A DNA stretch of 64,000 bases from Aplysia californica (Eukaryota). The position numbers and the translations under genes were made by a program. The stretch covers positions 861,942-925,941 of the forward strand of contig NW_004797343.1 in the NCBI RefSeq assembly GCF_000002075.1. The letters are read 5' to 3'. Below the pieces are notes generated by a model. The model had not been told where the DNA came from. It made no database searches and saw only the letters and a program-made list of their open reading frames with translations. Numbering within the stretch: position 1 is the first letter of the stretch; each line of letters starts with the position of its first letter. Of the stretch, positions 4,001 through 49,900 are shown in pieces.

Positions 4001-4976
4001 GAGGGGCTTAATCTTCTGGCGTCTTTACTGCAATTTTCACACACTTTATATTATTGTCTTTGCGTTTACAGTGTTTATATTTCAAGCATCACTACCAGAA
4101 TTCGAATATGTTAATTAACACGGAAACCTTTAGATCTAGATATTGCCAATCAAGTAGAGCATGGCATGGCTGACGGGCAGCAGTTAGCCGCAAGTGTGAA
4201 ATCATCTAGATCTAGATCGTATATCGGAAACACTTTTGTAACGAGCGACCGTCCCAACAAACACAATAAAGAAGAGACCTACCCCTACCCCTATCCGTAA
4301 CCCTACCCCTAACCCCAATCCTAATTTAATCCTAACCCTACCCCTCAAATAAAAGCTATAAAAGTCTTTAAAGTTCAAGAGATGACAGAGCAATATTATT
4401 CCCCGCATTTACCTCTTCATCCTGCCAGTATTTTTACCAAGTGAGTCCATTTTCTGCAACTCTGAAAAAAAGTCAACCGGACAACAGAAAGTGTACTCAA
4501 AGTGTCATTAGTTCAACTTTCGGTTTCCTACTTTCGTTTCGTAACAATAATCTCCGATTACGTAATATAAAAAGATAACATAACCAGTTTTGCGGGGCTC
4601 TAGTTGATTGGGGTTTGTTTGTTTTGTTTGTTTGGTTGTTGTTGTTGGGGTTGGGTTTTTTTTTGGGGGGGGCCTTCCTTATGACACCCACAAAAGCTCG
4701 GGGGTTTTGGGGGGGGGGGGGGCAATGAAATAGAAATAGAAGTGTTTGTTTCACTTTCTTGAAAGTCAAAGACGGTTTACCAGGTTGCTGCTTTTATTTT
4801 TCAGAGCTCTTCTGTTGGGAAACAAGAACCGCTGAAATAAACTTAACCAAAACTTCCTTACCTCATTTGTTGTGTGATTGACAGTCCTACAAATTATATG
4901 ATGACTGTTTTAGTCGCCTAACTTTACTATAGTTTTTGTCTATAGATATATATAAATCATAACAGGTATGTGTATG

Positions 4977-5248
4977 GGCCACCTCTATTCTCACCCCGGG
5001 TGAAAATAGTGCAGGTGAGTCTTTTGGCTATTCTCACCCGGTGCGCGTTCACCGTTAGTGGCGTTAGCCTAGATCTAGGCTAGGCCAACCAATTTTGCGT
5101 TCACCCTAAAACACAGAATTCTACACTGTGATAACAGAAAAATTGTTAGAATTCTGTGCCGTGAACAAACGTTCCATTACCACTGTTAGCCTACTAAAAA
5201 AAGCGTACAATTTTGTCTGTTGGCAGTGGAAAGAGAGAGAGAGAGAGG

Positions 5249-5306
<58 letters not shown>

Positions 5307-5838
5307 TGGGCCTAGCGCGAGAACTTCCAGGCAAAACAAAATGGCGACCCGCGTAGTTCGGCTCGATTCAAAAAGTTAAATAGCCGTAGCATCTTTGTAG
5401 ACGACCAAATTAATTTACTTTTGTGTTTTAACATCATTTTTAAAATAAATTTGTTTTGGTCAATTTGATCGTCCACACCGATAGACAGTATACAGAAAGA
5501 GATAGAGAGAGAGAAGAGGGGAGGAGTAGATCATGCGAGAACTTCCGGGCAAAACAAAATGGCGACCCCCATAGTCCGGCTCGATTCGAAAAGTGAAATA
5601 GCCATAGCATCTTTGTAGTCGATAAAAATAGCTTACTTTTTTGTGCTATATATAGATAACGTAATCTTTTCTTTGCCTTTATCCATTTGATCATCCACAT
5701 CGATAGAAAGTATTCCGAAATTAGGAAAAACAGGTCTTGTTTCACACCGGGTGAGAATAGCCTACGGTGGCAAGTCTCACCCGGGGTGAGAGGTCGATCG
5801 TATTTCTATTCTCACCGCGGGTGAGAATAGCCACTTCC
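4977..5838. mobile_element. Non-autonomous DNA transposon, GGCC...CACTTCC ends, 9-bp TSD (element C)
   Basis: TSD atgtgtatg at 4968-4976 and 5839-5847; palindrome CTATTCTCACC..GGTGAGAATAG at both ends; internal (GA)n and a direct duplication. Confidence 0.85.
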
Positions 5839-6021
5839 ATGTGTATGTCTCATAAATCCTGACGTTAAGCAAAAGGTCTGTTTTGTTTCTGTCCCAAGAT
5901 AAATATAAAAGCAAAGAGGGAGGGAGAGCAGCTAGATATAGATCTATATATATCTAGACGTCTAGATCTAGATAATCTAGATCTAAATCTGATCTTTATA
6001 TCAAGTGTCGAGTGACAGAGA

Positions 6022-6039
6022 GAAACCGAAAGTGAAAGT
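6022..6039 (+). promoter_or_regulatory. ISRE/IRF-E-like motif GAAACCGAAAGTGAAAGT
   Basis: Three tandem GAAA-NN units; related motifs at 4516-4540 and 4748-4758 on the minus strand. Function untested. Confidence 0.4.
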
Positions 6040-7078
6040 AGATCTAGAGAACAAGTGGAAGAATAGTTCTAGGCCTGGCCTACTTTTATCACTCACAGTG
6101 GTCGCTCATTACGGAAGTCCTCCCCCCTATATCTAGAGGTGGTCCCGACTTTTGTGACAGGGAAATGTAACCCAGAGTCCACAGAAAATCTAATCTAGAT
6201 CTAGAATCTAGTTTCGACCCCAACAACGATTAGATCTACTTCTGGTTATAAGTCTAAACAATTACTTTTTGATTCGTGTGTTGATATGGAGAGACAGCCT
6301 TTCAAACCTAATTTTGCCAAACATCGAATCGAGGTCAAATTCAGGGGGGACCCCATCAATGCCATCATGGTCCATGTTTTGTCAGGGGGGCAAACCCCCT
6401 TGCCTTCTTGGCTTGGGAAAAACAAGTGAAATTTTACGGCACGGCTCATTTTGTAGGCTAGTAGATATCTACTAATCCAGACTACTAATTAGTAGACCTA
6501 CATTTAGAACGCAAGTGTGTAAGTTACTGGGTAGCCAGTTACAGCACTGATATCTCTTCTGATGCAATCGCGAGAAAAGACATTCCCAGAACTCAGCAGA
6601 CGTTTCAGTGGCAGTGGTAGATTCTTGATCTGAATAGATCTAGATCTATAGCCTTGTGATGACGCGAATCTTGCAGGAAAAACACAAAACAGGAAGACGG
6701 TTAGATAGACAGTGTAGATCAGAGTGATATCCCTTGTCCTTAGAATGCCAAGAAGGCTGTTTTTATTCTGCTTTTCTGTAAATTAGTAGATCTAGTAACA
6801 GTTACAACAATTTCTATATAAACTATAACAGTAAAAGTTTATTGCCTTATATCTTTTGATGATAAATTAAAAACCTTATGCACCTGAAAAGCTTACACTA
6901 TGGAGCTCATCCATCATCATACCATTATTGACAAAATGACGTGCAAACGCGATAAGACCTGACACATGTTGTGATAAAATCATATGACTGAGTCTGAGAC
7001 CTGAGTCCTGTGAGTGGGTCCTGAGAAGTAGTCACTTGTGTAGCCTACCTGAGCCTACAACAAATATATCAAGCAAAA

Positions 7079-7129
7079 ATGGCTATATCGGCAGCAAGAG
7101 GAAAACTAATTGCCGTTATTGGCGACGAG
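7079..7129 (+). CDS. ATP6V1F: ATP6V1F exon 1 ([17 protein letters not shown])
   Basis: aaaATGg start, conserved [10 protein letters not shown], donor gtatga at 7130. Confidence 0.92.
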
Positions 7130-9129
7130 GTATGATACAGAAATTTGTCTACTTGCTTTCAATATGAGAGAGAAACCCAGTTGAACTCTGCAATGCCCAT
7201 GTTGACATTTGTCATTTGTTGAGTTCTGAGTTTCACTCCTCCGCCCTCTGCTCTGCAATGCCCATGTTGACATTTGTTGAGTTCTGAGTTTCACTCCGCC
7301 CTCTGCTGCGCTGCCAGATCTAGATCTAGATTCTATATCTAGACTATAGAGTCTGATCTAGATTCTAGATCTAGATTAGATATATACCCAATAATGATCG
7401 GAATAAGACAACGTCAATAAAAAAAGGAGTCAAATCCTAGAGCCTAGAGCCTAAGTAGCCTAGATCTATCGCAAATTTATATCAAGAAACTGAGAAAGCT
7501 TCCACAATTCAGGGAACGGAGTGTCTACGTACACGGTAACCGGGCACCTCCGCTGGCCTCAGTGTCTACGTACACGGTAGGCTAAATGGCAACCGGGCGG
7601 TAGCAGGAGGAGGAACACAAGAAGAAGAAGAAAAATCTAGTAGTAGATCTAGTATGGAAGTGGCTATTCTCACCCGGGGTGAGAATAAAAATACGATCTA
7701 CATGTCACCCCGCGTGAGACTTGCCAGCGTAGGCTATTCTCACCCAAGACCTGTTTTTTCCTCATTTCGGAATACTTTCTATCGGTGTGGATGATCAAAT
7801 TGATCAAAGCCAAGAAAAATTCCTTACGTTATAGACAAAAGTAAGCTAATTTGATCGTCTTCAAAGATGCTACATGGCTATTTCAGGGAGGACTTCCGTA
7901 ACGAGCGACCACTATTTATTCAAGATTTAACTTGTTGAGCACCACAATACTTATGGGAGACCGAAAGCCACTGTTATACTAGATCTACCTGGACAGGAAA
8001 AAATTACGGTCGTTTGCGCAGTTTGAGTTTTAGGCCCTGTTCAACCATTTGAAGATGGCCGTCGTTATTCGGACCCGAGTCCGAATAACATTTTTTCATA
8101 TTCGGACTCGAGTCCGAATAAAAAAAATTCTTATTCGGACTCGAGTTCGAATATGAAAAAATGTTATTCGGACTCGGGTCCGGAAAAAAGGAAGTGTCTT
8201 CGTTCTATAGATCTAACGTTCAGTGCTTCCAATTTTCCGCCTTTTTTAAGTTTTCCCCACACCTTATCTGCCGCTCCAATGCCCGCCGCCTCATTGATAT
8301 GCCCCCCCACGTTTCCCACTTTCATTGTTGTAGAAAAAGGTAAAATTGAAGATTAGCAGACCACCTGGCATATTATGAGCTGTGTAAAAAAAAAGGCCGG
8401 CACTATTTCTCCGAACGTTCGGGAAAATAAAGCTGGGCACTATTTCTCCGAACGTTCGGGAAAATAAAGCTGGGCACTATTTCTCCGAACGTTCAGGAAA
8501 ATAAAGCTGGGCACTATTTCTCCGAACACTCTGAAATATCATCCTTTCCCCCAAATTTCGGATATTATATAGATCTATAATTATAGTATGGGCCTACCAA
8601 AGATTGTTCGTATACAGTATGGTTCAATCGGTCCAAAAAATGTCCGCCGTAAATATTTATATAAAGAAATGCTACAATTCCAAACAGTTTTTCGCTATAG
8701 ATATGACGTGTTGCCTATGAAAGGTGCTGCTTTTAAACGTAATGTGTTGTGTTCACTCGTGTGCTGTCTAGATCTAGATCTACGGAGGGTTATTGATAAC
8801 GACACATAGAACTGGCATCTGCGTTTGTCACTGCTGCGACCAATGTACTGACACTGGCAAGCCCCTTAATGTGTGTGATTCCATAATTTACATGTAATAT
8901 CCTGTACTTTTTTTTAAATTACGCACATTTAGGGTTAAAACTGCCAATCTTCTTCGGACAGGTGGACACACGCCCTTATTTGTTATTGTTTGTTGTTGTT
9001 TATGGGCTGTTCTAATTTTGATTTCTTTCTGTTATGAAACCTTTCTTTTTCACGTTTTTACACTCATCTAAAAATCTCATCTAGACTAGCTGTTGAAAAT
9101 TTAAATAGATATAGACCCAAAAATTTGCT

Positions 9130-9174
<45 letters not shown>

Positions 9175-12100
9175 GTGAGTGTTTGAGTGTGTCTGTGTGT
9201 GGTAGTAAGTGGAGAGTGAGGAGTGTGTGTGTGTGTTTGTTTGTTTTTCGGGCTTTATTTCAGCCTTTATTCAGTAACAGTTCAAAGTATACAAAAATAG
9301 AAACACAGGATCCATTCACTCCAGGACTCATGAGTCATTCGTCTCTTTCAGTTTCACTCTTTCATTCAATTCCCGTGTTCTCTCCCGCGGCTCATCCCCG
9401 TCCGCATGACTTTCATACCCCACCCCATCCCTCCAGGCACACACAAAGAAAATCTCACTTGTTCCCTGCGAACCATGGACAATAATATAGGCAAAACACC
9501 GCCTGAGCTGCATTCCTTTTGTTCGTGAGCTGTGGACCAGGCCAGGGGTGGTCAGTGTCGTCGTCTTTTAGTTGCTGTCGTCTGTGGATACACTCGCACA
9601 TTCTTCCTTTCACCCGCTCTTTCACTCACACTGTCTCTCCATCCACAGTTCAGCTCGTCATACGTTCAAAAGTTGCCCACTAGTTATGTTTAGTTAGTGT
9701 GTGTACATGTGCATGATGGTGGTGGGTGTGTGGTGGGTGTTACTGAAGGTTGTCTGTAGGCGGGCTTGCCATGCGGTACGTGTTCCTTCCCAGACCAGAG
9801 GCAGAATGAAAGTTGGCGCCGAACTCTCGCAATAAATAGGCAAAAAATCACGAGACCGGAAGCCGAAAACCGTTCGGAGAAATAAAGATCGGCACTATTT
9901 CTCCGAACGTTCGGAGAAATAGTCACTTCGAAAAAAAAAAAGACCGATTCGTTCAAATACACAAGCCTGTGTCATATCGATTGTTTACCAAGAAAAAGTT
10001 GTGTTGCTGTGTAGAGCCGAGCATACGGCAACTTTTGATTCCATAGACCAGCGCACAATTCATTACGTATTCATTACGTAGATCTACGTCAAAACTAGCT
10101 TATTATTGTAATAATGATAAGTTGCCAGGGGGGAAAAGACCGACGCTTATGCGACGTTCAAAGCCCGGACCAATAGTGCCCCCCACCACCCTCCCTGACA
10201 CGCACACAGCCACACGTGTGCAGGCCGCCCATCCGACCCCGACACATGCTAACGAGCCATCTTTAATTAATTGTTTCTGATGACCTCTTGATAAATAAAC
10301 ATTTATTAGAAGCGCTATTACTTTTCAGGCCGGCCTCAAATTCATCATAAGATTAAAACTCGGCTCCTGCACAAAACGCCTTTTTGCCCGAAGTGATCCC
10401 GGTCTCTACCCAGCCTGAGGCGAGTCACGAGTGAGGCAGGACAGGAAGCCGGATTCACGAGTCACAGGAAGTCGGAAGTGATGTCATGCTGGACAAGAAT
10501 CAGAGTCCGAATAACATTTTTTCATATTCGGACTCGAGTCCGAATAATCACTTCGTTTGAAGATCTGAGTCGGGAATTAGTAGAATTTACTCAGGGCGCA
10601 GCCATTGTTGACCCCGCATACTTTATCAACTTCCGCTCTTCGGGAGCGCTGGTTTGCCAGGTTTTCGTCGGTTTCCAGCCAAATTTTCACTTTGATTAAT
10701 CCTCCAATAAATAACGAGCGACCACTATGAAACAGGTAGAATAGAGAATTCTGAGTTAAGGGTAGGGGTAGGATTAAGGTTAGTTAGTGTTAGTGTTAGG
10801 GCAAGGGCTAGGGATATGGCTAAGGTTAGAATTAGGGTTAGGGGTAATACGAAACCATTCACAATATAAAATCCCATGGGGGGGGGGGTTATAGGGGGGG
10901 CTTGCCCCCCTATTTACATTATAACAGAATCCCATGGGGAAGGGGGGGATGTAGGGGGGCTTGCCCCCCTATTTTCTCCCCTATTTCTAATACAGAATCC
11001 CATGGGGAGGGGGGGGTTATAGGGGACTTGCCCCCCTATTTACATAACAGAATCCCATGGGGAAGGGGGGGGGGTTATAGGGGGGCTTTCTTTTCTCAAA
11101 ACTAGGTTGATTTGGAATCCCATGGGGGGGGGGGGGCAATAAGGCCCCTATTTTCTCACATTTAGGTAGGGGTAGGGTAGCGATAGCATTAGAATTAGAT
11201 ATAAATCACCTACCTTTTCATGCATCCAGTCCTGGGTAAACCTTGGTGATCTCCTTCAGGAATCGTACAAACTTGCATTTGGCGTCTGCGTTCTGCCGGT
11301 GCCAAATATATTCCGCCAGGTGGGCAGCGAAGTGCTGCTTCTGGGTGTGAGATGACCGCAAACTCCTCTTCACTGCCCACCAGGTAGATTCGATGGTGTT
11401 GGTGTGGGCGCCGGTGTGCGGGTCAACAAAATTCTCCGTGTGGTTGGCGGTCAGGTGTCGGAAACCCTCTCGCTCCAGGCACTCGTAGCTCTTGAAACAA
11501 TCGCTGTAGATTATGGTACCTGGAGCGACGTGCTTCTTGATCAGACTGATGAGGGTATCCTGGGTGCGGTCTTGTACAGGGACAAGGAAGCACTCCTTGG
11601 TCTCTCGACAAATGCCGCCGAACACCCACTGGCCGTCGACCACCCTCCCACGATTATATTTTCGCTTTCCAAATTTGGCTTCGTCGACCTCGACGCTGTA
11701 GTTGGCCCCACCAATCTGCCGCACTTCCTCACCGCAGTAGAGACTTTCAATGATGACCTCTCTGCAATAATTATACAGATCGGCCATCGTTTCCGTACTG
11801 GTCTCGCAGTGGTCAAAGTCTGGTCCTGACGTTTCGCGGATGGCAGTGTCGTAACTACTGCGGTTGACGGGGGATTATTGATTTTTTTTTAAAGACGCAC
11901 GGGGGGGAAGGGGGGGGGGGTGAAGGCAACACCGGATGACAAAAACTAAACTTGGAAGCAGATTTTACTTTTCAGAATTTTGATTACTACTATCTAGATC
12001 TCAAGCTCTCTGCAATGCGCGCGTTGGTGCAGGCCTTGTATGGAATCGGGATCTGTCATACTCAAACCTTGTGAGCCGTGTGTTTGTAACTAAAGGGTTC

Positions 12101-25433: not shown

Positions 25434-26922
25434 CTAGCGTCTGCGTTTGTTGTCATATTTTTGTCCAAAAGTTGCCCAAAAAGTTGCCATTAGTTTTCAA
25501 GCTTTCTACTCTCTGTGGCGACGTATATATATTGCATTATGTTGACATAGGTAACTTCATCTAAAGCACCAGAATTTCTTGTGTTCTGTTTTATGCAACC
25601 AGAATATCATTTGTAGCCACATAGGATGAAAAACGTGAAAAATGAAGGTTTCAAAATAGAATGAAATCAAAATTAGAACAGCACATAAACAACTACAAAA
25701 ATTAATAAATAAAGACGTGTGTTAACCTATCCGAAGATTGGCCGTTTTAACCCTAAACGTGTTTAATTCAAGAAAAAGTAAAGGATATTACTTATTACAA
25801 GTAAATGGAATCACACACAAGGGGCCTGCCAGTGTCAGTATTCAGTTTTGGTAGAGCATGACACATTTTTTTAAAAGGCAGGAACAACATAAAATTAAAT
25901 AACATACGCTATATAGACATAAAAAACAGGGGCTCTCGTGGCCTACAGGTTAAGGTGTTCACCTCTCATTCAAAGGTCCCGGGTTCGAATCGGGTAGCGA
26001 CCGAAAAAAATTTCTTCTCTAGAATTGTCTCCTTTCACTTCCTTTCCTGCTCTCTAACAATGTTCTGTCGTCTGCTTTCGTCTCCTCTTCCTGTCCCCAC
26101 CCCCTCATCTCCTTTGCCCCCTCCTCTGGACTCTTTCTGCAGCCTATCTACTGCTACTGCTTGAATCCTTCTTACTGCTGTCTTTCAGCCCCACCCCTGA
26201 TCTTCTGGGAGGTCCCGTGTGCAAGTTGCGCACGTTAAAGATCCCTTGGTTGGTGGTCTAAAATCGATAAGAGTAGGTTTCGGTCGCCACCCAGGCAAAA
26301 TTCAAAATTTCCTACCTACTAAAAAAGTTTAACGGGTCATGCACTCTCATATGACCTTATGCAGTTGCGAGCACCGTAAAACACTTACCAAAAAAAACCC
26401 TTTAAAAAAAAAACCCAACAAAAAAAGCATCAAAAACCGAAAAAAGAACACATCAGAACAATAACAAGGCAAATTAAAACACAATAAAGAGGAACTAATT
26501 AAAGGGAAACAACAATACATATAAATTATAGTATGTAATGTTCTTATTCTTCACATGAAATTTCATTGAAAATAACAAATCAACGTGGTGTCAACAAGTG
26601 AGAAAGAGAGGAAGTGAAACTAAACTTTCTAGTTTGTCTTTCTAAAAGTAAAGTTAATCATTAAAAAACCCAAAAATAAAGAAACCGAACCTCATTAACT
26701 TAATGAGGTTCGGTTTCTTTATTTTTGGGTATTTTAATGTTTTCTTTTGCAGTTTCTCGACTTTTATTCCCAAGGGTTTGTTTTTTGACTTTTTATTCCC
26801 AAGCGGTGGGGAGGGGGAGGGGTTGTTTTTTTGGAGAGTTTTTTTTTTTTTTGTTATTTTAATGGAGAAATCGTGGGCCAACATTTGCCAAAAATCGCGG
26901 CCACGACAAACGTAGATGCTAG
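25434..26922. mobile_element. CTAG-ended TIR element, copy 1, with nested SINE
   Basis: Ends ctagcgtctgcgtttgt... and ...acaaacgtagatgctag; flanks attggg/attgag (5 of 6 match). Confidence 0.7.
25929..26397 (+). mobile_element. tRNA-derived SINE with Deu/Nin-like core and Nimb/I-LINE-like tail
   Basis: A box tggcctacagg, B box ggttcgaatc (25982), core gcacgttaaagatccc (26230-26245), tail catatgaccttatgcagttgcgagcaccgtaaaac followed by an A-rich end. Confidence 0.8.
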
Positions 26923-34530: not shown

Positions 34531-36030
34531 AGCCACTTGCAGTTTCCTCCAGTGGCATCGCGTGGGTTGCAGACAAGCATAATTGGAAAGTGAGCAAATG
34601 GGCAATAGGCTTACTAGCTACTATTACGATTTCTAGAGAAAGTCAATAATTAGAATCTGCAGGATATCCCGTAATCTACATCTATAAATATTCACAACTG
34701 TTTCTAGATCCAGATGAAACCCCATAAAAGCTGCAATAAAGTGAAACAATAATAACAGCTCACCATGCTCACAATCTGAGAAGATTTAAAGCTTTCTAAT
34801 TACTTCGTGAAGCACCAGGACATGCTACACAATCGAAGGAGACAACAGTTTCGACCTATTCTACACTTGGTTACCGTAGACCCTACTACTACACTACATG
34901 TTATTTACTATCATTGACTACATGTACTAGTGCTAGTGTAGTAGATAGACTAGTGGAAACTTGGATCAAATTTTTAGCAATTGCACCAAAATTAATGGAT
35001 GCTGCGGAGAGCAGCTTCATGCACCTTTCTTCTTGTGCGGGAAGAACAATGGCTAGTTTTCTCTACAGTGACAAAAATGACTTTGGTGCAAAGATTTTGC
35101 TTGCTCCCAGCAGACGCAACCTCAAGCGGTGAGACGAGCATAAACCCTCCTGTCTCTAGGCCATTTATCGTTGCGTGGAATGTTGATCTAGAGCTCTGAC
35201 TGGTTTAGAAAAATTAGAAAAGGGAGGAAGTGTGTGTGTGGGGGGGGGGGGGGGGGGTGAAGGCCAGGGTTAGGTGGAGCACTAATGGCGCCCCCGCCAG
35301 TTTTCCTCATTCGTTCACACGAAATACCAGACAGAACAGAATTAACAATGGGCGGTAGATCTAATTTCCTTTTCAGTAGCGCAAGGCTTTAGGGGACTGC
35401 AAAGTCCCCGAATAAGCAGCGCCAGAGGACTACGCTGTGCAGTCCCCGAGTGGGTAGCGCTTATGGGGACTGTGCAGTCCCCTATAACAAACTTCCTACA
35501 TTATATTTTATTTGAGGCACACTGCTTATTGATAAACGCAATAGCTTGGCTAAACTAAAGGATAACGTTTTTGTAAAAAATGATTGTTTGAAACCTCATT
35601 TCAGGTGCAGTCTGTTAGTTCTAATAATGGCCCGATGTCTTAAAAATACTGGGATAGTGCTTGGAGCATTATGAATGTCTAAACCGCGAAAATAACCACA
35701 GTAGTCTATAGATGAATGGCAATATTATAGTCATTTTTTGGCATGGGTAGTCAGGCGTGTAAGCGGTAGTGTTTTTTAGCTTAGATATACTGTTCATAGC
35801 ATAGTGTACACAAAAGTCATTAGGGTAGTATTTACATTGTGCAAAAACCACTACGGTAGTCTTTATTGCACGGTAGTGTTCTGATCGTGTTACACCGGAA
35901 CAGCTGATGCTCAAGGGGGTAGTGATGGGCCGATACCACAATTTAGGTATCGATGTTGATACCTAGTACTTTTTCAAGGTATCGATACCGATACCTCGAT
36001 ACCTAATGCTATTGGTAACATACGCCGGGG

Positions 36031-36547
36031 CAAAGATAGTACATAACAAGATGGGCCACTTCTCTCTTTGAGCCAATTAAAAAAGTGTCCTCAAAATTTG
36101 GTGGCGCCCTCTTCACAAAAGCGCACTCTTTGCGAACAGAGTTACCCTACTTGAGTTTTAAAAAATCAAAGTGAAACTAGCAAGTTTGGGGATAAATTTC
36201 GGAAGAACGCTTTTTTAAAATGGTTACGCTGACAAAAAAACCTCTTCCGGAGGAAAGGGTGATGGTTTTCTTCGTTAAATTTGACTTTAGAATGAAAGAC
36301 GAGAGGACATTAAAATTTAAAAAAAAACTAAAACTAGTAAAACTCCGTAAAACTCCGCACTGAACGTACCCGAACTGCTGATGAACAGCAGTCGATCTGC
36401 GCACGCAAGGAGGTGCTATTCCTATTCTTCTTCTGGAAAAACGAAAGAGAGCTTCAAAACAGACTGCAGCGCCATCTGAAGCAAAGAGCATACTTCCTGC
36501 GGACACTTTTTTGGCTGAGTGGCCCATCTTGTTATTCACTATCTTTG
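36031..36547. mobile_element. P-element-type MITE copy 1 (CAAAGATAGT...ACTATCTTTG)
   Basis: ~30-bp TIR; 7-bp TSD gccgggg on both sides. Confidence 0.85.
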
Positions 36548-36658
36548 GCCGGGGGTAATAAGTAAAGACAAAAATACAACTATACTTTTCCAAGTATTTA
36601 GGTAATCGTGTCTAGACAAGTTGTGACTATTTAGCTGAGACTCAAACAAAAATTATTT

Positions 36659-36717
<59 letters not shown>

Positions 36718-36880
36718 ATACCCAAATATGAGAATAAGAACAAAAATTAAGTGAAGTATTGGAGGAAAGTCAACTTTGCAGAAAATGTTAGTATTGGAAA
36801 ATAAAAACACAAGAGTTCTAAAAAGGCAATTCAATTTACCAGATTTTTAGCATCTTTGAATTAAACCAATGAGGATAAAT

Positions 36881-37054
36881 CAGGGTTGTCAGTTAGGATT
36901 TTGCAAAATCACTAGATAGATTTCATGAAAAACTTCTCTCTTTTTGTTAAAAAATCACTAGATTAATTTAAGACGCTTGCCCCCTACGAAAACTTATCAG
37001 TTTTGATAAACAAAACATTTTTCAAGGCCCAAGTCACTTGCTTTGGCAGCCCTG
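36881..37054. mobile_element. Small hAT-type MITE (CAGGGTTG...CAGCCCTG)
   Basis: 8-bp TSD ggataaat at 36873-36880 and 37055-37062. Confidence 0.8.
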
Positions 37055-37067
37055 GGATAAATAACAC

Positions 37068-37562
37068 CAATGATAGTACATAACAAGATGGGCCACTTCT
37101 CTCTTTGAGCCAATTAGAAAAGTGTCCTCAAAATTTGGTGGCGCCCTCTTCACAAAAGCGCACTCTTTGCGAACAGAGTTACCCTACTTGAGTTTTAAAA
37201 AATCAAAGTGAAACTAGCAAGTTTTGGGATAAATTTCGGAAGAACGCTTTTTAAAAATGATTACACTGACAAAAAACCTCTTCCGGAGGAAAAGGAGATG
37301 GTTTTCTTCGTTTAATTTGACTTTAGAATGAAGGGCGAGAGGTCATTAAAATTTAAAAAACCTAAGACTCCGCACTGAACGTACCCGAACCGCTGATGAA
37401 CAGCAGTCGATCTGCGCACGCAAGGAGGTGCTATTTCTATTCTTCTTCTGGAAAAACGAAAGAGAGCTTCAAAACAGACTGCAGCGCCATCTGAAGCAAA
37501 GAGCATACTTCCTGCGGACACTTTTTTGGCTGAGTGGCCCATCTTGTCTTGTACTATCTTTG
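37068..37562. mobile_element. P-element-type MITE copy 2
   Basis: Same TIR; 7-bp TSD ataacac. Confidence 0.85.
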
Positions 37563-37625
37563 ATAACACATAGGTATCGATGTTTAGAGCAGGTATCGGT
37601 AACGATACCGATACCTATAGGTATC

Positions 37626-38120
37626 CAATGATAGTACATAACAAGATGGGCCACTTCTCTCTTTGAGCCAATTAAAAAAGTGTCCTCAAAATTTGGTGGC
37701 GCCCTCTTCACAAAAGCGCACTCTTTGCGAACAGAGTTACCCTACTTGAGTTTTTAAAAATCAAAGTGAAACTAGCATGTTTTGGAATAAATTTCGGAAG
37801 AACGCTTTTTTAAAATGGTTACGCTGATAAAAAACCTCTTCCGGAGGAAAGGGTTATGGTTTTCTTCGTTTAATTTGACTTTAGAATGAAAGGCGAGAGG
37901 TCATTAAAATAAAAAAAACCTAAAACTACGCACTGAACGTACCCGAACTGCTGATGAACAGCAGTCGATCTGCGCACGCAAGGAGGTGCTATTCCTATTC
38001 TTCTTCTGGAAAAACGAAAGAGAGCTTCAAAACAGACTGCAGCGCCATCTGAAGCAAAGAGCATACTTCCTGCGGACACTTTTTTGGCTGAGTGGCCCAT
38101 CTTGTTATGTACTATCATTG
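37626..38120. mobile_element. P-element-type MITE copy 3
   Basis: Same TIR; 7-bp TSD aggtatc. Confidence 0.85.
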
Positions 38121-38545
38121 AGGTATCTAAGTATCGAGTATGGTATCGATACCTACCCATCACTACAAGGGGGTGTAATTCCTATTCTTCTTGAGATTAG
38201 GCCCTAGGCTAAGCTAGAATCATAGAGTGAACCACACACACAATAGCCTAGTTCTGCCCCAGACTACACACTACACTACATTAGATCTAGACCTAGATTC
38301 TAGAATCTAAATTCTCTAACACACAGCATTATGATGATGATGACCCTCTGTGTGACTCGGCAGTCGACAGCATGAGCAGCAGTGTGATGAAACAGCTGAT
38401 CAGTATTAGTATCAGGACTCTGGACTCCCCCCTCCGCCACCTCCGCCTGCTGTCAACTTTGAGTTCACCAAAACAGCATTCTTCTTGTGATTACACAGCT
38501 AAATCTAGATTTAGACCATCTAGGTTTTCTGTGAGAACAAGAAAC

Positions 38546-38565: not shown

Positions 38566-41500
38566 GTAAGGATTAAATAGTTGGAAGTGCCTATTTGCAA
38601 CGCGGTGTTCCAATTAGACTTTTAGTGAAGTGCCAGTGCTATAAAACGCAGCGTTGCAATTAGCGCCAGATAAAACGCTGTATTGCCTTGTGTAAAATAT
38701 CAAGCTTTATCTGCACTTCGTTATCGGTAGTTCTGATGGTCAAATGGACAGCGCGTCTGCGCTTGAAGTCAAACCATTTTTTTTTTGGAAGTGCCTATTT
38801 GCAACGCCGCGTTGCCATAGCGCCAGTGCTAAAAATAAAACACTCTATGTGTTAGCCTAGGCTACATCATGAAGCTTAATCTACCCTTCGTTGTTGGAAG
38901 TTCTGATGGCCAAAGTGACAGCGCGTCTGCGTTTGAAGCCAAACTATTATTTTACGAAGTGATTATTCGGACTCGAGTCCGAATATGAAAAAATGTTATT
39001 CGGACTCTGATTCTTGTCCAGCATGACATCACTTCCGACTTCCTGTGACTCGTGAATCCGGCTTCCTGTCCTGCCTCACTTGTGACTCGCCTCAAGCTGG
39101 GTAGAGACCGGGATCACTTCGGGCAGAAAGGCGTTTTGTGCAGGAGCCGAGTTTTAATCTTATGATGAATTTGAGGCCGGCCTGAAAAGTTATAGCACTT
39201 CAAATAAATGTTTATTTATCAAGAGGTCATCAGAAGCAATTAAAGATGGCTCGTTAGTATGTGTCGGGGTCGGATGGGCGGCCTGCACACGTGTGGCTGT
39301 GTGCATGTCGGGGAGGGTGGTGGGGGGGGCACTTTCGGTCCGGGCTTTGAACGTCGCATAAGCGTCGGTCTTTTTCCCCCCGGCCACTGATCATTATTAC
39401 AATAATAAGCTAGTCTTGACGTAGATCTACGTAATGAATTGTGCGCTAGTCTATGAAATCAAAAGTTGCCGTATGCTCAGCTCTACACAGCAGCACAACT
39501 TTTTCTTGGTAAACAATCGATATGACACGTACAGGCTTGTGTATTTGAACGAATCAGACTTTTTTTTTTTTTTTTTACACAGCTCATAATATGCCAGGTG
39601 GTCTGCTAATCTTCAATTTTACCTTTTTCTACAACAAAGAAAGTGGGAAACGTGGGGGGGGGGGGGGGGCGTATCAATGAGACGGCGGGCATTGGATAGG
39701 CAGATAAGGTGTGGGGGAAACTAAAAAATGGCGGAAAATTGGAAGCACTGAACGTTAGATCTATAGAACGAAGACACTTCCTTTTTTCCGGACCCGAGTC
39801 CGAATAACATTTTTTTCATATTCGGACTCGAGTCCGAATAAGAATTTGGAGTCCGAATAACGACGGCCATTATTTTATGAGCGTGGGTTTGATCCCGGTC
39901 CTTATAGTATTTTTTTTTTTTCTTTTTTTTTCCGAAGTGGCTTGCCGTGCTTGGCTAGACTGCCAGTCTAGCCGTACTTAGATCTAGGTTTGGCCCTATC
40001 GACTCAAACCTGTTGAGTACACAGGGCTCATTAAAGATCTAGATCTAGATCTTGTAATTCAGGTTTAAAATTATAATGCTATCAGTAAGGCACCTTTTGG
40101 TTTTTTGTTTGAATACAAATACTTTAGGCATTGCAAACAAAAAATTTCATTTACATTTCAGCCATCATTATTATTAAGTACGGCTAGCCTGGCTGTCTAG
40201 CCGTCCTTAAGTACGGCTAGCCTCGTCGTCACGGCTAGCCAAGCAGTGTAGCCGTAGAGGAGCTCGAAAGTAGGCCTTAGTATAGCCTACATATATATTA
40301 TATACTTTTCCTTAATAAAAATACCAATTAGGTCTGATTAAAGTTCAATACAGTGGAGTCCACTTATAACGAGTCTGGAAAAAATGAGAAGTCTGTTATA
40401 AAGGCACTATTCTAAATCCCCGTTTTTTTCTTCTCTTTACCTTTGTTAAACAAAATACTGCTATAGCGCTATCAGACACACTTGCGAGTCGGTTATAGCG
40501 GAATATTGCTGCTGCTGTGCACATGGTATATAGGCCAATACATAATGCAAGACCTCGCCAGTTGAGAAACTTGTTGCTAGTCTTGCGAACAAAGAATAGG
40601 AGAGCCCATGTGCGTCAACAATGAAGGGCGGAGCAACTGAGTAGGGAGGGTCTGGCATGCGCAGACAAGCAGAACGCATCGCGTGGTAGGCCAGTTTAGA
40701 TTATCAAGGCCTGCCATGCCTCTCACTTCTCCGATGCGGGGATGGAGAGGTCACCGCAGTGTGATGGATGGAGCGAATGTGTGACGTGCGCAAGCAGACA
40801 ATGCACCACAGGGTGGGATGGGGTGGGGGGAAAACACAACGGACGAGTTAGCCCAGAGCCCTTTCTTTCTGATCGCCAACACCGAGCTGTCAGTCCACAT
40901 CGCTAGATCTAGCGCTAGAGAAACAAACCTGATTCGATTTTTGATCAAGTAATAGACCTAGGGGTCATGTTGAAATAAAATCATCATCACGGGGGATAGC
41001 AAAAGGAAAAACAGAACACCAAACTCAAAGATTAGGCCTACTTTACAGTTTCCCTTGAATTTATTACTGTACTGGATCCGGTATAGCGAGAATCCTGCTA
41101 TAACGGACATTTTGCTTTAGTCCCCTCCCTCTCGTTATAACAGGATTCCATTGTAGTGACTTTCCTTGGTCTGTGAGTCTAATTCTTATTTTTTTAAAAA
41201 CCCATATATTTTAGACTGGAGAAGAAAAAAAAAGGCCGGCACTATTTCTCCGAACGTTCGGGAAAATATAAAGCTTTGCACTATTTCTCCGAACACTCTG
41301 AAATCACATCCTTTCCCGCGAATTTTGGATATATAGATATATATTTATATTATTACCCTTCTCCCTCCGAGACCTAACATTGACAACACACTCTATGAAA
41401 CATTACAGAAACTGCAGCAAACCTGCACTTATCACTACATGGCATTGGACAGAAGGGGGAGAGCCCAGCTGTTGCTGGATCGATAACAACAACAACAACA

Positions 41501-44500
41501 TTTATATTATAGGCCTACCAAAGATTGTTCGTATACAATTTAAGGTTCAATCTGTCCAAAAAATGTCCGCAGTAAATATAAAGAAATGTTACAGTTCCAA
41601 ACAGTTTTTCGCTACAGATATGATGTGTTGCCTATGAAGGGTGCTTCTCTTAAACTTTATGTGTTGTGTTCACTCTTGTGCTGTCTAGATCTAGATCTAT
41701 GGAGGGTTATTGATAACAACGCATAGAACTAGCATATCTGTGCGTTTGTCGCGGCCGCGACTCAATCAATTAAGGCTCGATTTGTTTGCATTTTTTGGTC
41801 CCTAAATCGGGGAATAAAAGTCAAAAAAAAAAAGAAAAAGAAACCGAACATCTTTACTTTTGAAAGAAAGTTCACTTAGCTTCACTTTGTCTCTCTCACT
41901 TGTTGTCACCACGTTGATTTGTTGAATACGTTACATTATATACGATTTGTATTGCCGTTCCTCTTTTATTTTTCCCTCTTTGTGGTGTTTTATTTTGTTG
42001 GTCATGTAATTTTTTTTTCTTGTTATTGTCCTGATGTGTTGTTTTTTTATTAATTTTTTTGTTGTTGGGAAATTAGAGGGGGGGGGGGGATGTTGTATAG
42101 TGTAACCTAATTTAATTTGATGTTCCTACCTTCATTAGGACGTACACGATTCTCTCTACAATACGCAATTAAACAAAGCTCAACACCAGAGAACCCTGCA
42201 CACAACTGTATTTTCAGAACTAACTCAGACACCATCATAAACAAATTCCAAAACAACGAAAAACTCACCAAACCGTTCAGCCTCAGAGTCCTTGAGGACC
42301 TTAAAAACATATATACTTTTCCAAACAAGACCTTCAACAATTTCTTTTCCCCGAACTCCCTCCGTGGCGTGGCACCTCACCAAGGCAAAAGTAGACACAC
42401 AACTGACCACACACACCAAAGCAAGCACAAACACCAAAACATTTAAAGCAGCATACAACAAGAAACTTTTAGAAAAATATGGCGATGCGGAGCTAATCTT
42501 CACAAATGACCCTAAGTCGGACTCCGCTGTGGGCGCCGCTGCCTTATCCTCAAAACAGTACTCAGCAGAGGAGACTCTATCCATTTTCTCTGTGGAGGCC
42601 AGCCATTGACATGGCACTGGACTCCGTAGAAAGTTCTCCAAACAAATCTTTCCTTATCCTTTCTGACTCTTTGTCTTTCATCACCTCACTTACACAAACT
42701 ACACACTCTTACTCCCCAAAATAGTTAGGTTGCAAAAAAAATACACGCTTTGGCTGAAACCAGGAAAAGTATCGTGTTCGCATGGCTACCTAGCCATGTG
42801 GGCGTCTGAGGAAACAAGCAAGTGGACCTCCTGGCAAAGGAATCCTTTTCCCTTATGTTGGGATCAATGACGAACACTCTCCCACAGACTGACGTTAACT
42901 TTAAAAATAAAGTAAAAAACTACACCTCCAGTCTGTGGGAGACTCATTGGAAAAAGCAACAAAACAATAAATTGTACAACATCAAACTGAAACTAGGTCC
43001 GCGAAATCCTTTGAGCCTGTCCAGAAGAGACAAAGTCATTTTTATTCGATTACGCATTGGACACACGTTCCTGACTCACAAATACCTCCTTCAGGGAGAT
43101 GAGAAGCCATTTTGTGTTGGATGCGACACAGATCACATTTCAACAAAATGTGTAGACTTCGGAGAGACCCGAAGGAAAGGTTTTAGATGCAAAAAATTGC
43201 AAGATCTGTTTTCTGTCATAGAGCTTGCTGTTGAGCAGAGATTTGCGCTTTACCAATGCTATCTATTATGATTTTCAAATCAGCGGGGCGGGTGTTCTGA
43301 TGTAGTTTCCTCCTTCTTTCCTAGGACTAGATCTATCAGACAATAAATTTGTGGGACGACATGGTGAAATCAGGTACTTGTCAATTTTTTGGGCATGTGG
43401 AGTTATTGGTATCATCTTGCTTTCAAAGAAAAAAATAGCCATCTGTCTTAAATAGAAATCAAGATATTTCTGATTGAAGGAGAGAGGACTCGCCTGGTTT
43501 CTGTAGTGAAGTTATATAGGGGACAAAATGTGCGTCAAAGTTACGAAACTCCAATAGTCAAAGAGTCCTTGTAAACTGAAAAATGACATATTTTGTGCCT
43601 TTAATCAATGTTTTTCAGTAAAATTCATATATGGAAATATAAATGTCTTTATATGGACGTAAAAGGGGTTGAGGTAAAAAACAAAAATTTGATAAAAATT
43701 GCCAAACTGGGAGAAAAATTGCCTGTTTCTCCGATTGCGTTATTTTGACGAGCGCCTGATTTCACCACGCTGCCTCACATTTAGTTTTTTATCGTCGCTC
43801 TGCTGATAAAATAACTCTGACTAGATCTATAATGACCAACTATTATGGTGCGTAATAAAATAGCCTAATTGTCATGAAAACCATTTCAAGGTCGATCCAC
43901 AGGTCCTCGATAAACAAGAGGAGTCAGCGGTATGCATAGTAAAATACAGTAGGGCACCTTTAAAAGTCAATCATCTGTACAAATGGCCACTTCCCATTAA
44001 TTCGTCTCTTTCATTTTAAAATATATACCCTGACACTGTCTAAGACAACCACCAGTCCAAATATGACCACTTAATTTTCTCCTTGACATTGGGTGGCCTT
44101 TTAAGACAGTTTTGACTAGTTACAAAATGGGTTAACTGTTGTGCCAGTGCATGGTAGCAAAATTATTGGCGGGATCTGGAAATCTTGTCTAAATGTACGA
44201 ATTTCTCTTTAGATATATGTAACCTACGTATTTTGAACATTTGAAGAATGTGGAGAGGAAAATTTGGGAGCTGCAAATATGTTCACTATGAGGGGGTTTT
44301 GAATATTAGAAATGTGTGTATGCTAGATAGATCTATATGAGGCAGCATGGTGAAATCAGACGCTCGTCAAAATTATGAAACTGAAGGAATTGGCATTTTT
44401 CCACCAGCTCTAGTTTTGCAATTTTTATTGAATTTTTGTTTCTTGGCTTAACACCTTTTATATTAATTTAAAAACACATTTCTGTTTGGATTTTACTGAA

Positions 44501-47500: not shown

Positions 47501-49900
47501 TAGAAAGAAAAGACTTTTGTAAATATACTACAGTCTAGCATACACATAGCGAAAATACACAACGAAACATGCACATTGCAAACAGATTTCAGGTCCCAAA
47601 TATTTTTTAATGTATTCTTTGTATATATATATATAAAACAAATACGAAGCGAAATAGTACATAGTGTAAAGATTTACGCATCCCACCGGTTTTGCAATGT
47701 GTGTGCTAGACATTGGTAACTCAACCATCGTATTTCTTATTGTACTGACTGGTTGTTTTTTTTACTGTATTTTGATTCCTTCCAGCTAACCCACAGGCAC
47801 AGAGCCTGCTCTTCGTTGCCTTGTCTGCCCGTGTTTTCATGTTCCACGAACCTTACAATGATGCTGGTGATATATTCATGGATTGGGCTCGAACCACGTC
47901 AGACCGTCTTATATTCATATCTTCAACTGAAGTGAGTTTTTCAAGGGCCTTGTATGATCCAGAAGTGAAGAAAACTGAACTTGATGTCAAAATCAAACTG
48001 GGTTACGTGGGAAATGCCTCAGTTGCCATGGTCACAGAACTGTATTCCCCTGACAACAAGGATGAGCCAATATGCTCCCAGGTTGCTCAAACTGTGTCGA
48101 TAGACAAGAGCACAAGGAAACCCACGCCATTCCAGGATTGGTTCAGAGACAAGTTTGTGGGGAGAGGTATACGAGACAGGGGTCTCGTCATTCGACCTTT
48201 TGAAAGGCCAGAAAATGCATTCCCTTACGAACTCAAGGTGAGTACCTACCCTATTGTTACTGATAAGTCTCTGTAAGTAAAAAGTGAGTGTATGGTTTTA
48301 ACACCACTATCAACACTGCAAGGTTATTTAAGAGGGGGGGGGGGGGGGACATCTGAATTTAAAGTCTGTCTTCGATAGGCCAAAGCCAAATGGATTGTGA
48401 GCCAGCCTTGAAAACTCTACTTAATGACCCTAGCTCAAGAATGCCCAGTCTGGGATTTGAGCCAGGGCCATCCACTCTGTAGTCCAGCATGATACTTTCT
48501 GAGCTAATGGAGCGCCTTAAGTCTCCGTGTATATCTTTGTGTACTGTCTAGCACGTAAACATCCTGTACTTCGTGGTTGCCGCGCGCCAGTTCTAGTAAA
48601 CTACCAAGAAATGGTGTTTCTTGCCCCGTTCTTTGAAAAATAGGTAAATTTTAGGTAATATAATATTTTTACACTAAGTAATGAGCCATTTCTCATTTCA
48701 TGGTTATTAGTAAATAATGTTACTTTACGGCCTACTGATTTTTATCAAGATAATCTGTGGAAGTGCAGCTTTATACCAATTCCAGTGTGAGCTAAATTAT
48801 TAAAGTTATGGTGAACTTTTTTTTAATGCTTAAAAGTACTTGTATGTTGAATCTAATGGAATTTTTGCATTCAGCATGCTAAATTACATTATAAATTTAA
48901 ACGAATCAGTCTCATATCTGTAATTATCATTTAATTTTATGAAAGTTAACACTTACAAAAGATGTGTTTTTGCACATTCTTTTTGCCATCGTGCGAAATG
49001 AGGCTTTCAGTCATTTTCACGATGGCATACTTCCAACATTCTTTTTTCTATGCTGACCCCCAAAAAAATTGAGCTTTTACCCTGCATTATCAACATCATG
49101 TAGTTTTGACTTTGCTGGATAATAACTTTCCAAGCCTCTGAAATTGGCATTTTGTGGTGTAGCAAGTAAAATTTGTTCACTAAAAAGCCATTTTCATATA
49201 ATTTTATGTGTTTACAGAATAATCGGAATTATAAGCTCAAGGATTTTTTAAACGTTAAGTCTTTGTATGCCTCAATATTATCCTTAACTTCAAGAAGACA
49301 TAATATATGAGTATGTGCATTGTCATTACATGATTTTGTGGCTGTTCAAAGTCCTGCTTTTTTAACATACGCTCCATGAAATGTTCTACATTTTGATTGA
49401 ATTTCAACAGTGATGACTTTTTATTGGCTAATTTTAATGTTTTAAACGGTGAGTTTCATCATTTTTACTGCTCTTTCTGATCCATTGAAGAAAATCTACT
49501 TTTGGGAAATTTTAATTTTTTAATTTGTGGTACCTGCATGATTACTTTGATAGCATGCTTTTCTGTATATTTGTAGGTTCGATGGAGTGACACAGATGGT
49601 TATAACCATGTCAACGCCTTAAAGTACATCACATTTGCCGAGGATGCTGTGCATGCTGCTTTGGTTCACTCTGAAAGTGGGGAGAAGACTCACAACACTG
49701 CTCTGAGAGGCCTTACAGAGGACTTTCTGATTAACGGTTTCAAGAGTATGCAGATTTCATTTCAGAATGAGAGTTTGGAGGGTGAGAATCTTGTGGCTTA
49801 CGTGTGGCAGCCGGAAGAGGAGGATCCTTCTGTCGTTAAATGTTCTATAGAGAGGAATGATCAAAGGATTTGCCAGCTTCGATTTGAGTATTATGACTAG
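38546..49900 (+). CDS. Acyl-ACP-thioesterase-like double hot-dog protein, spliced: join(38546-38565,44851-44975,47786-48237,49577-49900), ~306 aa
   Basis: GT-AG introns with compatible phases (2,1,0). Motifs include LGYVGNAS, V.IDKSTRKPTP..DWF and VRWSDTDGYNHVNALKY, which resembles the D-x-D-x-x-x-H-V-N thioesterase motif. Exon 1 is the least certain. Confidence 0.8.
38955..39868 (-). mobile_element. Element A copy 2 (inverted, without nested element B)
   Basis: TSD attatttta at 38946-38954 and 39869-39877; closely similar to the reverse complement of 8057-8394 plus 9931-10555. Confidence 0.88.
40351..41153. mobile_element. Tc1/pogo-type MITE, longer copy of 16415-17020
   Basis: TA|CAGTGGAGTCC...GGATTCCATTG|TA. 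Confidence 0.8.
41234..42065 (+). mobile_element. Partial element B copy joined to a CTAG-element end (41729 onward)
   Basis: Matches 8395-8830, including the junction to ctagca..tgcgtttgtcgcggccgcga. Confidence 0.7.
42120..43220 (+). mobile_element. Degraded Nimb/I-clade LINE (RNase H and C-terminal region)
   Basis: IFTNDPKS, SIFSVEA, ILSDSLS, WLPSHVG, RLRIGHTFLTHKYLL; near-copy of 22165-22820. Confidence 0.8.
43349..44765. mobile_element. Two oppositely oriented ~430-bp TIR elements (~43349-43779 and ~44337-44762)
   Basis: Shared terminal motif ..catggtgaaatcagg..c.tgtcaa and mutually reverse-complementary interiors; superfamily unassigned. Confidence 0.55.
44851..44975 (+). CDS. Thioesterase-like gene exon 2 (DLSFWQDNFKQ...PGLTPESFNRY)
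   Basis: tttttcccag acceptor, open frame, gtgaaa donor, phase joins exon 3. Confidence 0.75.
45231..45505. repeat. Minisatellite, 11 copies of a 25-bp unit (RTCACAACATTTGTCTCWTGCTTTG)
   Basis: Head-to-tail units with no spacers. Confidence 0.95.
46770..47497. mobile_element. Tc1/pogo-type MITE with both TIRs (family of 12137 and 60046)
   Basis: tagtagtctccgcctaagatcc...ggatcttagtcggagactgcta. Confidence 0.75.
47786..48237 (+). CDS. Thioesterase-like gene exon 3 (first hot-dog domain and linker)
   Basis: ttccag acceptor, 150 open codons (track ORF 47821-48276), gtgagt donor. Confidence 0.88.
48285..48517 (-). mobile_element. Degraded tRNA-derived SINE; possible relative at ~52640-52835
   Basis: Minus strand ggcgctccattagctcag...ggctcaaatccc A/B-box-like head. 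Confidence 0.45.
49577..49900 (+). CDS. Thioesterase-like gene exon 4 (second hot-dog domain, VRWSDTDGYNHVN...YYD*)
   Basis: ttgtag acceptor, open to TAG (track ORF 49649-49900). Confidence 0.88.
   Translation, partial: VRWSDTDGYNHVNALKYITFAEDAVHAALVHSESGEKTHNTALRGLTEDFLINGFKSMQISFQNESLEGENLVAYVWQPEEEDPSVVKCSIERNDQRICQLRFEYYD

Follow-up and report, generated by a model that had tools for sequence, protein, structure and literature searches.

How can short transposons that carry no gene keep one terminal sequence while the DNA immediately inside it changes from family to family? The question is raised by a 64,000-nucleotide stretch of the Aplysia californica genome (contig NW_004797343.1, positions 861,942 to 925,941; the whole stretch is called the window below). 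A preliminary description of the window, made from its letters alone, had noted four insertions, C, A, B and A', which start with GGCC, end with CACTTCS, lie between 9-bp target-site duplications (TSDs) and carry a palindrome of their own kind inside both ends. We find that these insertions belong to at least ten families of non-autonomous elements with 9-bp TSDs and one common tip, which are real, abundant and well defined.

Four insertions and the families to which they belong

The ends and 9-bp flanks of the four insertions were recovered exactly as they had been described, and the subfamily palindromes are present inside both ends of the window elements. The four complete elements are listed here, with tips read from outside in the order left / right.

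4977-5838, + strand: element C, a complete copy of 862 bp, non-autonomous; tips GGCCACCT / GGAAGTGG; one palindrome at 4985-5009, the other at 5806-5830; TSD ATGTGTATG at 4968-4976 and 5839-5847
8057-10555, + strand: element A, complete; its own sequence amounts to about 950 bp, with element B nested in it; tips GGCCGTCG / CGAAGTGA; TSD TTTGAAGAT
8395-9930, + strand: element B, complete, nested in an A-run of element A, 1,536 bp long; tips GGCCGGCA / CGAAGTGA; palindrome at 9894-9923 (30 bp, perfect)
38955-39868, - strand: element A', a complete copy of 914 bp with 93% identity to A, inserted into a family D element; 9-bp TSD TAAAATAAT (element strand)

No other pair of GGCC and CACTTCS in the window has matching flanks; the 796 candidate pairs give 0.03 such cases expected by chance, compared to four observed. 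Moving an end by a single base breaks the flank match of C, A and A'. The exception is B, whose TSD is ambiguous in length within its A-run and measures 9 bp in other B copies. Element A carries several palindrome copies at its left end and one and a half at its right. When six terminal pieces were folded as DNA, four gave z-scores between -4.1 and -5.8, and the left ends of B and C only -2.2.

An assembly artefact was ruled out, because contigs of the independent sequencing runs X8 and X9 bridge the right junction of C. A contig of run X3 (which may be the assembly's own sample) skips 923 bases at A', that is, the 914 of the element and the 9 of one TSD copy; since A' sits in a multicopy D host, this skip may represent a paralogous empty site. 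The D copy in locus L169 shows the unduplicated site of the A' insertion. No empty-site joints for C, A or B were present among the sequencing-run joints listed.

In a genome-wide scan, the fixed tip followed by a TATT...AATA palindrome frame gave 2,124 matches in the genome, compared to eight for the reversed control. A second pattern was not enriched overall (61 matches against 53 in controls) and was useful only for finding families H and J. Tips and families were surveyed in 1.98 Mb fetched from the 927-Mb gapped assembly (0.2%), and since these loci were picked by tips or transposase matches, the family counts are not genome proportions. The survey yielded 139 distinct fixed tips in 10 families (tips again left / right, from outside).

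Family A: GGCCGTCG / CGAAGTGA; 23 fixed tips
Family B: GGCCGGCA / CGAAGTGA; 31 fixed tips
Family C: GGCCACCT / GGAAGTGG; 34 fixed tips
Family D: GGCAGGCG / GGAAGTGC; 10 fixed tips
Family F: GGAAGAGG / CGAAGTGG; 11 fixed tips
Family G: GGGTGACC / GGAAGTGC; 8 fixed tips
Family H: GCCWGTGG / CGAAGTGG; 15 fixed tips
Family I: GGAAAGCA / CGAAGTGA; 3 fixed tips
Family J: GGAAGTGT at both ends; 3 fixed tips
Family L: GGCC-type left tip, 9-bp TSD in locus L315; 1 fixed tip

Both ends and matching flanks were found for 38 elements, with TSDs that are exact at 9 bp in 33 (three of these lie in A/T runs and are ambiguous in length) and contain one mismatch in the remaining five. The pairing script looked for 9-bp flanks only; unique copies match at length 9 alone. 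All 38 TSD-flanked pairs unite ends of one family, and the TSDs are 87% A+T against a background of 59%.

Each end consists of an 8-base tip followed, from about base 9, by the family palindrome of 22-30 bp, which is mostly framed YTAT...ATAR and occurs in one to five copies per end, with spacers. The right tip, read from outside, is almost invariably SGAAGTG with a family-typical eighth base ([CGT]GAAGTG was fixed by the definition of the scan), and it begins with CG in six of the 10 families (A, B, F, H, I and L). The left tip starts with G and varies by family, and in J it equals the fixed tip; the initial G was required by the scan and is confirmed independently by the four window elements. 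Both tips had been described as fixed. This holds for SGAAGTG only, because GGCC is restricted to four of the 10 families (25 of the 38 complete elements). Since one tip drifts and the two tips of J are identical, the ends are imperfect terminal inverted repeats (TIRs) whose outer eight bases may mismatch; the inverted similarity between ends begins after the tip and spans about 25-100 bp. The interiors of the nine families compared have in common only a microsatellite and one 26-bp match, and hold no coding remnant. The earlier idea of a single radiation, in which one tip is conserved and the palindrome is specific to each family, is supported, with at least 10 families and unrelated interiors.

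Changes within the terminal palindromes were one-sided in 103 cases, two-sided in nine and compensatory in four. As the changes are mostly one-sided, inserted copies show no selection for a hairpin, and maintenance of the hairpin in such copies is disfavoured. Another member of these families adjoins 14 of the 139 tips, against 49 of 2,000 control stretches, a comparison biased by the choice of loci. At one locus (L127:8230-9784) B adjoins C directly, with three copies of one 9-mer, as if B had entered the TSD of C. At another (L244:1501-1545, contig C156), a perfect 45-bp foldback with two fixed tips around one H palindrome stands at the end of an H copy.

The window also holds partial members and the hosts of the insertions.

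4226-6124, + strand: element into which C inserted, gene-less and derived from the same Merlin family as the host of A; apparent TSD of 8 bp with one mismatch, the boundary being uncertain to within one base
7656-7885, - strand: older C copy, a truncated right end cut by the Merlin element that starts at 7886
7886-11874, - strand: Merlin element that hosts A and has ends of its own; a remnant of an IS1595-type transposase lies at 11221-11874; far boundary approximate
35389-35496, + strand: doubtful member E, three palindrome copies ahead of the degenerate tip GGAAGTTT
38583-41233, - strand: family D element in pieces, with the right tip GGAAGTGC at 38583 and again at 38787; far boundary approximate
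39933-40260, - strand: truncated right part of a family F element with the tip CGAAGTGG; left tip missing, far boundary approximate
41234-41766, + strand: left part of a family B element, tip GGCCGGCA, truncated

Three further ends had been suggested as probable members. Two of them are: the end at 38583 is the right tip of family D, of which a complete copy with a 9-bp TSD occurs at loci L148/L170, and the end at 39933 is the right tip of family F, of which four complete copies occur at other genome loci. The third, at 35496, could not be upheld, as neither a left end, nor a TSD, nor a second copy was seen in 1.3 Mb of fetched sequence (a genome-wide search was not made). The D element, whose left end was not seen in the window, contains A', an F fragment, an unrelated miniature inverted-repeat transposable element (MITE; 40349-41155) and a B fragment. 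The order of insertion in the window is the old C copy, the Merlin element, A and then B; D is the host of A', F and the B fragment.

Candidate partner transposases

On balance, these gene-less DNA transposons are likely moved in trans by cut-and-paste transposases of the Mutator type (Mutator-like elements, MULEs; Phantom/Tm1-like), none of which was found here.

Tm1 of root-knot nematodes is placed in the Phantom subclass of Mutator/Foldback elements and has a FLYWCH+MULE transposase (PMC3169594). Like the Aplysia elements, it has short asymmetric tips (7 bp in Tm1) outside an inverted repeat, one conserved and one variable; the conserved tip occasionally stands at both ends (here in family J), the number of inner units varies per end, the TSD is 9 bp and most copies are non-autonomous. 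The asymmetric-tip layout is therefore not new, and the same article describes ends of this sort as unusual, though known before from other Mutator-like elements. Tm1 is, however, one family with a 14-bp tandem unit, whereas at least 10 families with 22-30-bp palindromes of their own are found here. Muta1 and the MULEs of Aedes aegypti (PMC5499845, PMC5225508) also have two-part ends, with subterminal repeats that differ between families, as well as 8-9-bp TSDs, unequal repeat numbers at the ends of non-autonomous copies and genic insertions. [quoted passage not shown] MULE TSDs of 8-11 bp are given in PMC6446971, a range that includes those of the paired elements, together with TIRs of 14-500 bp or none; most MULE TSDs measure 9 bp, and long TIRs are typical of MULEs but not obligatory. 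Mollusc MULEs with no TIR recorded are listed there, and these could conceal ends of the SGAAGTG type. The Aplysia genome holds MULE transposases, with 37 matches to the domain PF10551 and a FLYWCH+MULE remnant of the Phantom type among them; the intact MULE that could be delimited has an exact 9-bp TSD, whereas three of the four delimited Merlin elements have 8-bp TSDs.

With such an enzyme, a dimeric DNA-binding domain would recognise the palindrome, which would set family identity. Bound there, this domain would keep the catalytic domain eight bases from the cut, where the latter may read the tip strictly at one end but only loosely at the opposite one. A target cut staggered by nine bases would leave the 9-bp duplication, and new families could arise when binding domain and palindrome change together and the tip stays. 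The proposed division of labour between tip and palindrome is borrowed by analogy from Muta1, whose transposase needs a short terminal motif for binding and end joining and whose inner repeats raise binding, cleavage and excision (PMC5499845).

Several observations weigh against a MULE partner. The inner units of Tm1 and Muta1 are tandem repeats of 12-15 bp and not palindromes of 22-30 bp, their tip sequences differ from SGAAGTG, and Tm1 as described has no target preference, in contrast to the A+T-rich TSDs reported above. Most left tips start with GG, a Merlin hallmark, and two local Merlins also have mismatched tips. The uniform pairing of ends within families is weak support for family-specific recognition, because descent alone predicts it. 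Of the 37 PF10551 loci, none of the 20 examined at 10 kb is bounded by family tips, nor is any of 10 MULE loci or near kin widened to 20-90 kb. A search with PF21056 returned largely the same loci, and PF15299 gave two weak matches only. No transposase gene, as the preliminary description had proposed to look for in long members, was found between such ends in the 1.98 Mb fetched.

Two MULEs could be delimited, and both have other ends. One is the apparently intact 14.3-kb element C386:562814-577098 (loci L276, L074 and L277), with 40-bp TIRs starting ACATGCG, its exact TSD and a 1,291-aa open frame with MULE and SWIM domains, the N-terminal part of which resembles Ulp1 by eye. A relative, its frame 1,200 aa long, is located at C33:2414545-2418144. 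The other is broken (L063:2331-8408, contig C22) and contains a SWIM domain, a PHD-like cysteine pattern and a 47-bp minisatellite ahead of its right TIR, a layout resembling that of Rehavkus in PMC6446971. Its GGGT(G/C)TA ends, which lack a TSD, resemble the Muta1 terminal motif. The FLYWCH+MULE remnant of the Phantom type has no recognisable ends.

Some tips and palindromes near transposase sequences were considered as possible links and rejected. A family L tip 8.2 kb downstream of the C33 MULE open reading frame (ORF) has no left counterpart in 75 kb upstream, and L is a short family. An A tip 2 kb from the broken MULE belongs to a fragment of 95 bp that is nested within an element whose ends differ. 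A weak ZSWIM3_N match in locus L169 is 8 kb away from a D tip and falls outside the D element, and a 39-bp palindromic array near MULE and Merlin debris in L077 has no tip.

The elements could instead be non-autonomous Merlin (IS1595-like) transposons, with a Merlin transposase that binds the palindromes and cuts at G-started tips; we consider this unlikely. GG-starting ends, 8- or 9-bp TSDs and often imperfect TIRs with mismatched outer bases are common to both (PMC8101967), the genome contains 70 matches to Merlin transposases, and A and C are inserted in Merlin-derived elements. However, 26 of these 70 loci were examined, over 3.3 to 10 kb each, and none has the tips as its boundaries, the palindrome-family members beside Merlin loci are separate short insertions, and the Merlin at 7886-11874 hosts A but is not the partner of the palindrome families. 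The four Merlins that could be delimited, with TSDs of 8, 8, 8 and 9 bp, have other ends and carry neither an SGAAGTG tip nor terminal palindromes. Two of them (L042:294-3327 and L047:816-3180) have common mismatched tips, GGCTGG / GGTAA, in front of different inner TIRs, and TSDs of 8 and 9 bp (the latter with one mismatch), and offer a coding counterpart of the fixed-tip design; in a third, the ends start GGAAGG / GGGAAG, near the left tips of F and I. In the palindrome families themselves, terminal GG is not general: the fixed tip begins with CG in six of 10 and the left tip of H with GC.

Non-autonomous Helitron2/Helentron elements (PMC3627910) share hairpin-forming ends and asymmetric inverted repeats with the Aplysia families, but as described they usually have no TSD or a variable one, unlike the constant 9-bp TSD and the palindromes equidistant from both ends found here.

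The tip in other hosts and the wider search for an enzyme

Occurrence of the tip outside Aplysia was examined with a scan of metagenome contigs that stopped at 120 hits and a filter for a C or G first base, a palindrome and a repeated arm. At least 17 of the 120 metagenome hits passed (about four of which resemble chance AT-rich matches), compared to two of 120 hits in prokaryote genomes, both weak, and none of five in viral contigs. One contig (L347) holds a complete element of 116 bp, which has three palindromes, the tips GGAAGTGG / CGAAGTGG and an exact TSD of 9 bp; it is the only metagenome member with both ends seen. Several new palindrome types occur among these members, and 17 of these contigs, when compared with the Aplysia loci, match them at one 52-bp stretch only. 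The metagenome DNA bearing the tip is likely animal, because the exons flanking the members are eukaryote-like and one of them has a mussel Tudor protein as its only match (39% identity). A related family, in which the palindrome arms seem to be split by repeats of about 100 bp behind a single fixed tip, was noticed in contigs L402, L405, L346, L357 and L384, with no opposite tip or TSD seen in these five.

These occurrences bear on a doubtful explanation, that the elements come from a cut-and-paste lineage which is undescribed or poorly modelled and whose transposase (or a palindrome-binding accessory protein) escaped the Pfam models used. With new palindromes, tip and frame reappear in unrelated DNA that is likely animal, the tip is not described in the literature searched, and six family searches plus 216 ORFs gave no bounded transposase despite more than 2,000 ends. 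The ORFs, taken inward of unpaired tips (88 + 128), encode only unrelated neighbours, and 95 ORFs in or near the metagenome members gave no bounded transposase either. Matches to PF20700, which we take to be Kolobok-like transposases, number 114, and none of the best 20 is bounded by tips. A search with PF20231 (presumably Academ-related) was empty and is uninformative, having also given no match in its control. It should be noted that failure to find the enzyme does not show its absence, because the search covered 0.2% of a gapped assembly; the family searches score first-look candidates only. MITE families, moreover, often outlive their autonomous partner, and layout and TSD already fit Tm1-like MULEs. 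Equally tentative is the fullest version of this explanation, namely a widespread animal lineage that keeps a universal SGAAGTG cleavage tip across distant hosts, has switched a dimeric binding module and its palindrome at least 10 times in one genome, and whose enzyme goes undetected by MULE and Merlin models.

The PF20700 loci (L179-L208) include at least nine transposases with open frames of 580-820 aa, which suggests recent activity of that group.

Non-autonomous AcademH elements are a very improbable source: their 9-10-bp TSDs in animals and fungi would fit, but AcademH termini start with a pyrimidine and end with a purine at both ends, whereas the elements here start with G at one end and with G or C at the other. 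An autonomous AcademH member would be expected to encode an Academ transposase together with a RecQ-like helicase.

What the families offer depends on which enzymes move them. If they are moved by Tm1-like MULEs, which seems most likely, the gain is a well-defined structural variant and a repeat annotation, with no new mechanism. The combination is still unusual, in that the tip is kept across hosts and palindromic, family-specific units stand at a constant spacing from the cut. No description of an SGAAGTG tip combined with such palindromes was found in the literature searched, although the MULE tables in the supplements of PMC6446971 and PMC13359780 could list such ends. Should partner enzymes be found, 10 or more families with one tip would allow a test of how transposases shift DNA-binding specificity and keep their catalytic contacts, and of whether the families avoid cross-mobilisation; if the lineage proved to be an undescribed one, they would form a natural series of orthogonal transposase-end pairs. 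In any case, the tip is a simple marker for relatives in other animals.

Genomic setting of the window elements

The elements are common beside and inside genes of the A. californica genome, and in the window they lie close to a probable gene start.

7079-7129, + strand: exon that is probably the first coding one of V-ATPase subunit F (its only matches are V-ATPase F chains, with an E-value of 0.35 for this short query)

A later exon of the gene, located with a motif that we assume to be typical of subunit F, lies near 18313. Element C is 1.2 kb upstream of this probable start, and A and B are within an intron. The start is flanked by two members of the same Merlin family, each with a palindrome-family insertion. 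Several further tips were noticed beside host gene exons; a preference for genes and their surroundings is a usual trait of MULEs, with which these positions may agree.

Element A contains internal GAAGTG words like its own tip (at 8190, 10389 and 10474), and element C contains two AAAATGGCG words (at 5339 and 5558). We take these to resemble ETS and YY1 sites, respectively; to judge from the words alone, they might confer promoter-like activity near genes.

Elsewhere in the window, a near-perfect 81-bp palindrome at 26659-26739 lies in AT-rich DNA and is part of another repeat. A 500-bp repeat occurs in three copies with 92-96% identity at 36031-38121, within a cluster of short inverted repeats. 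Thioesterase-like exons were found at 47776-49897, and a non-LTR (long terminal repeat) retrotransposon at 54098-57176 comprises an endonuclease and a 669-aa reverse transcriptase frame.

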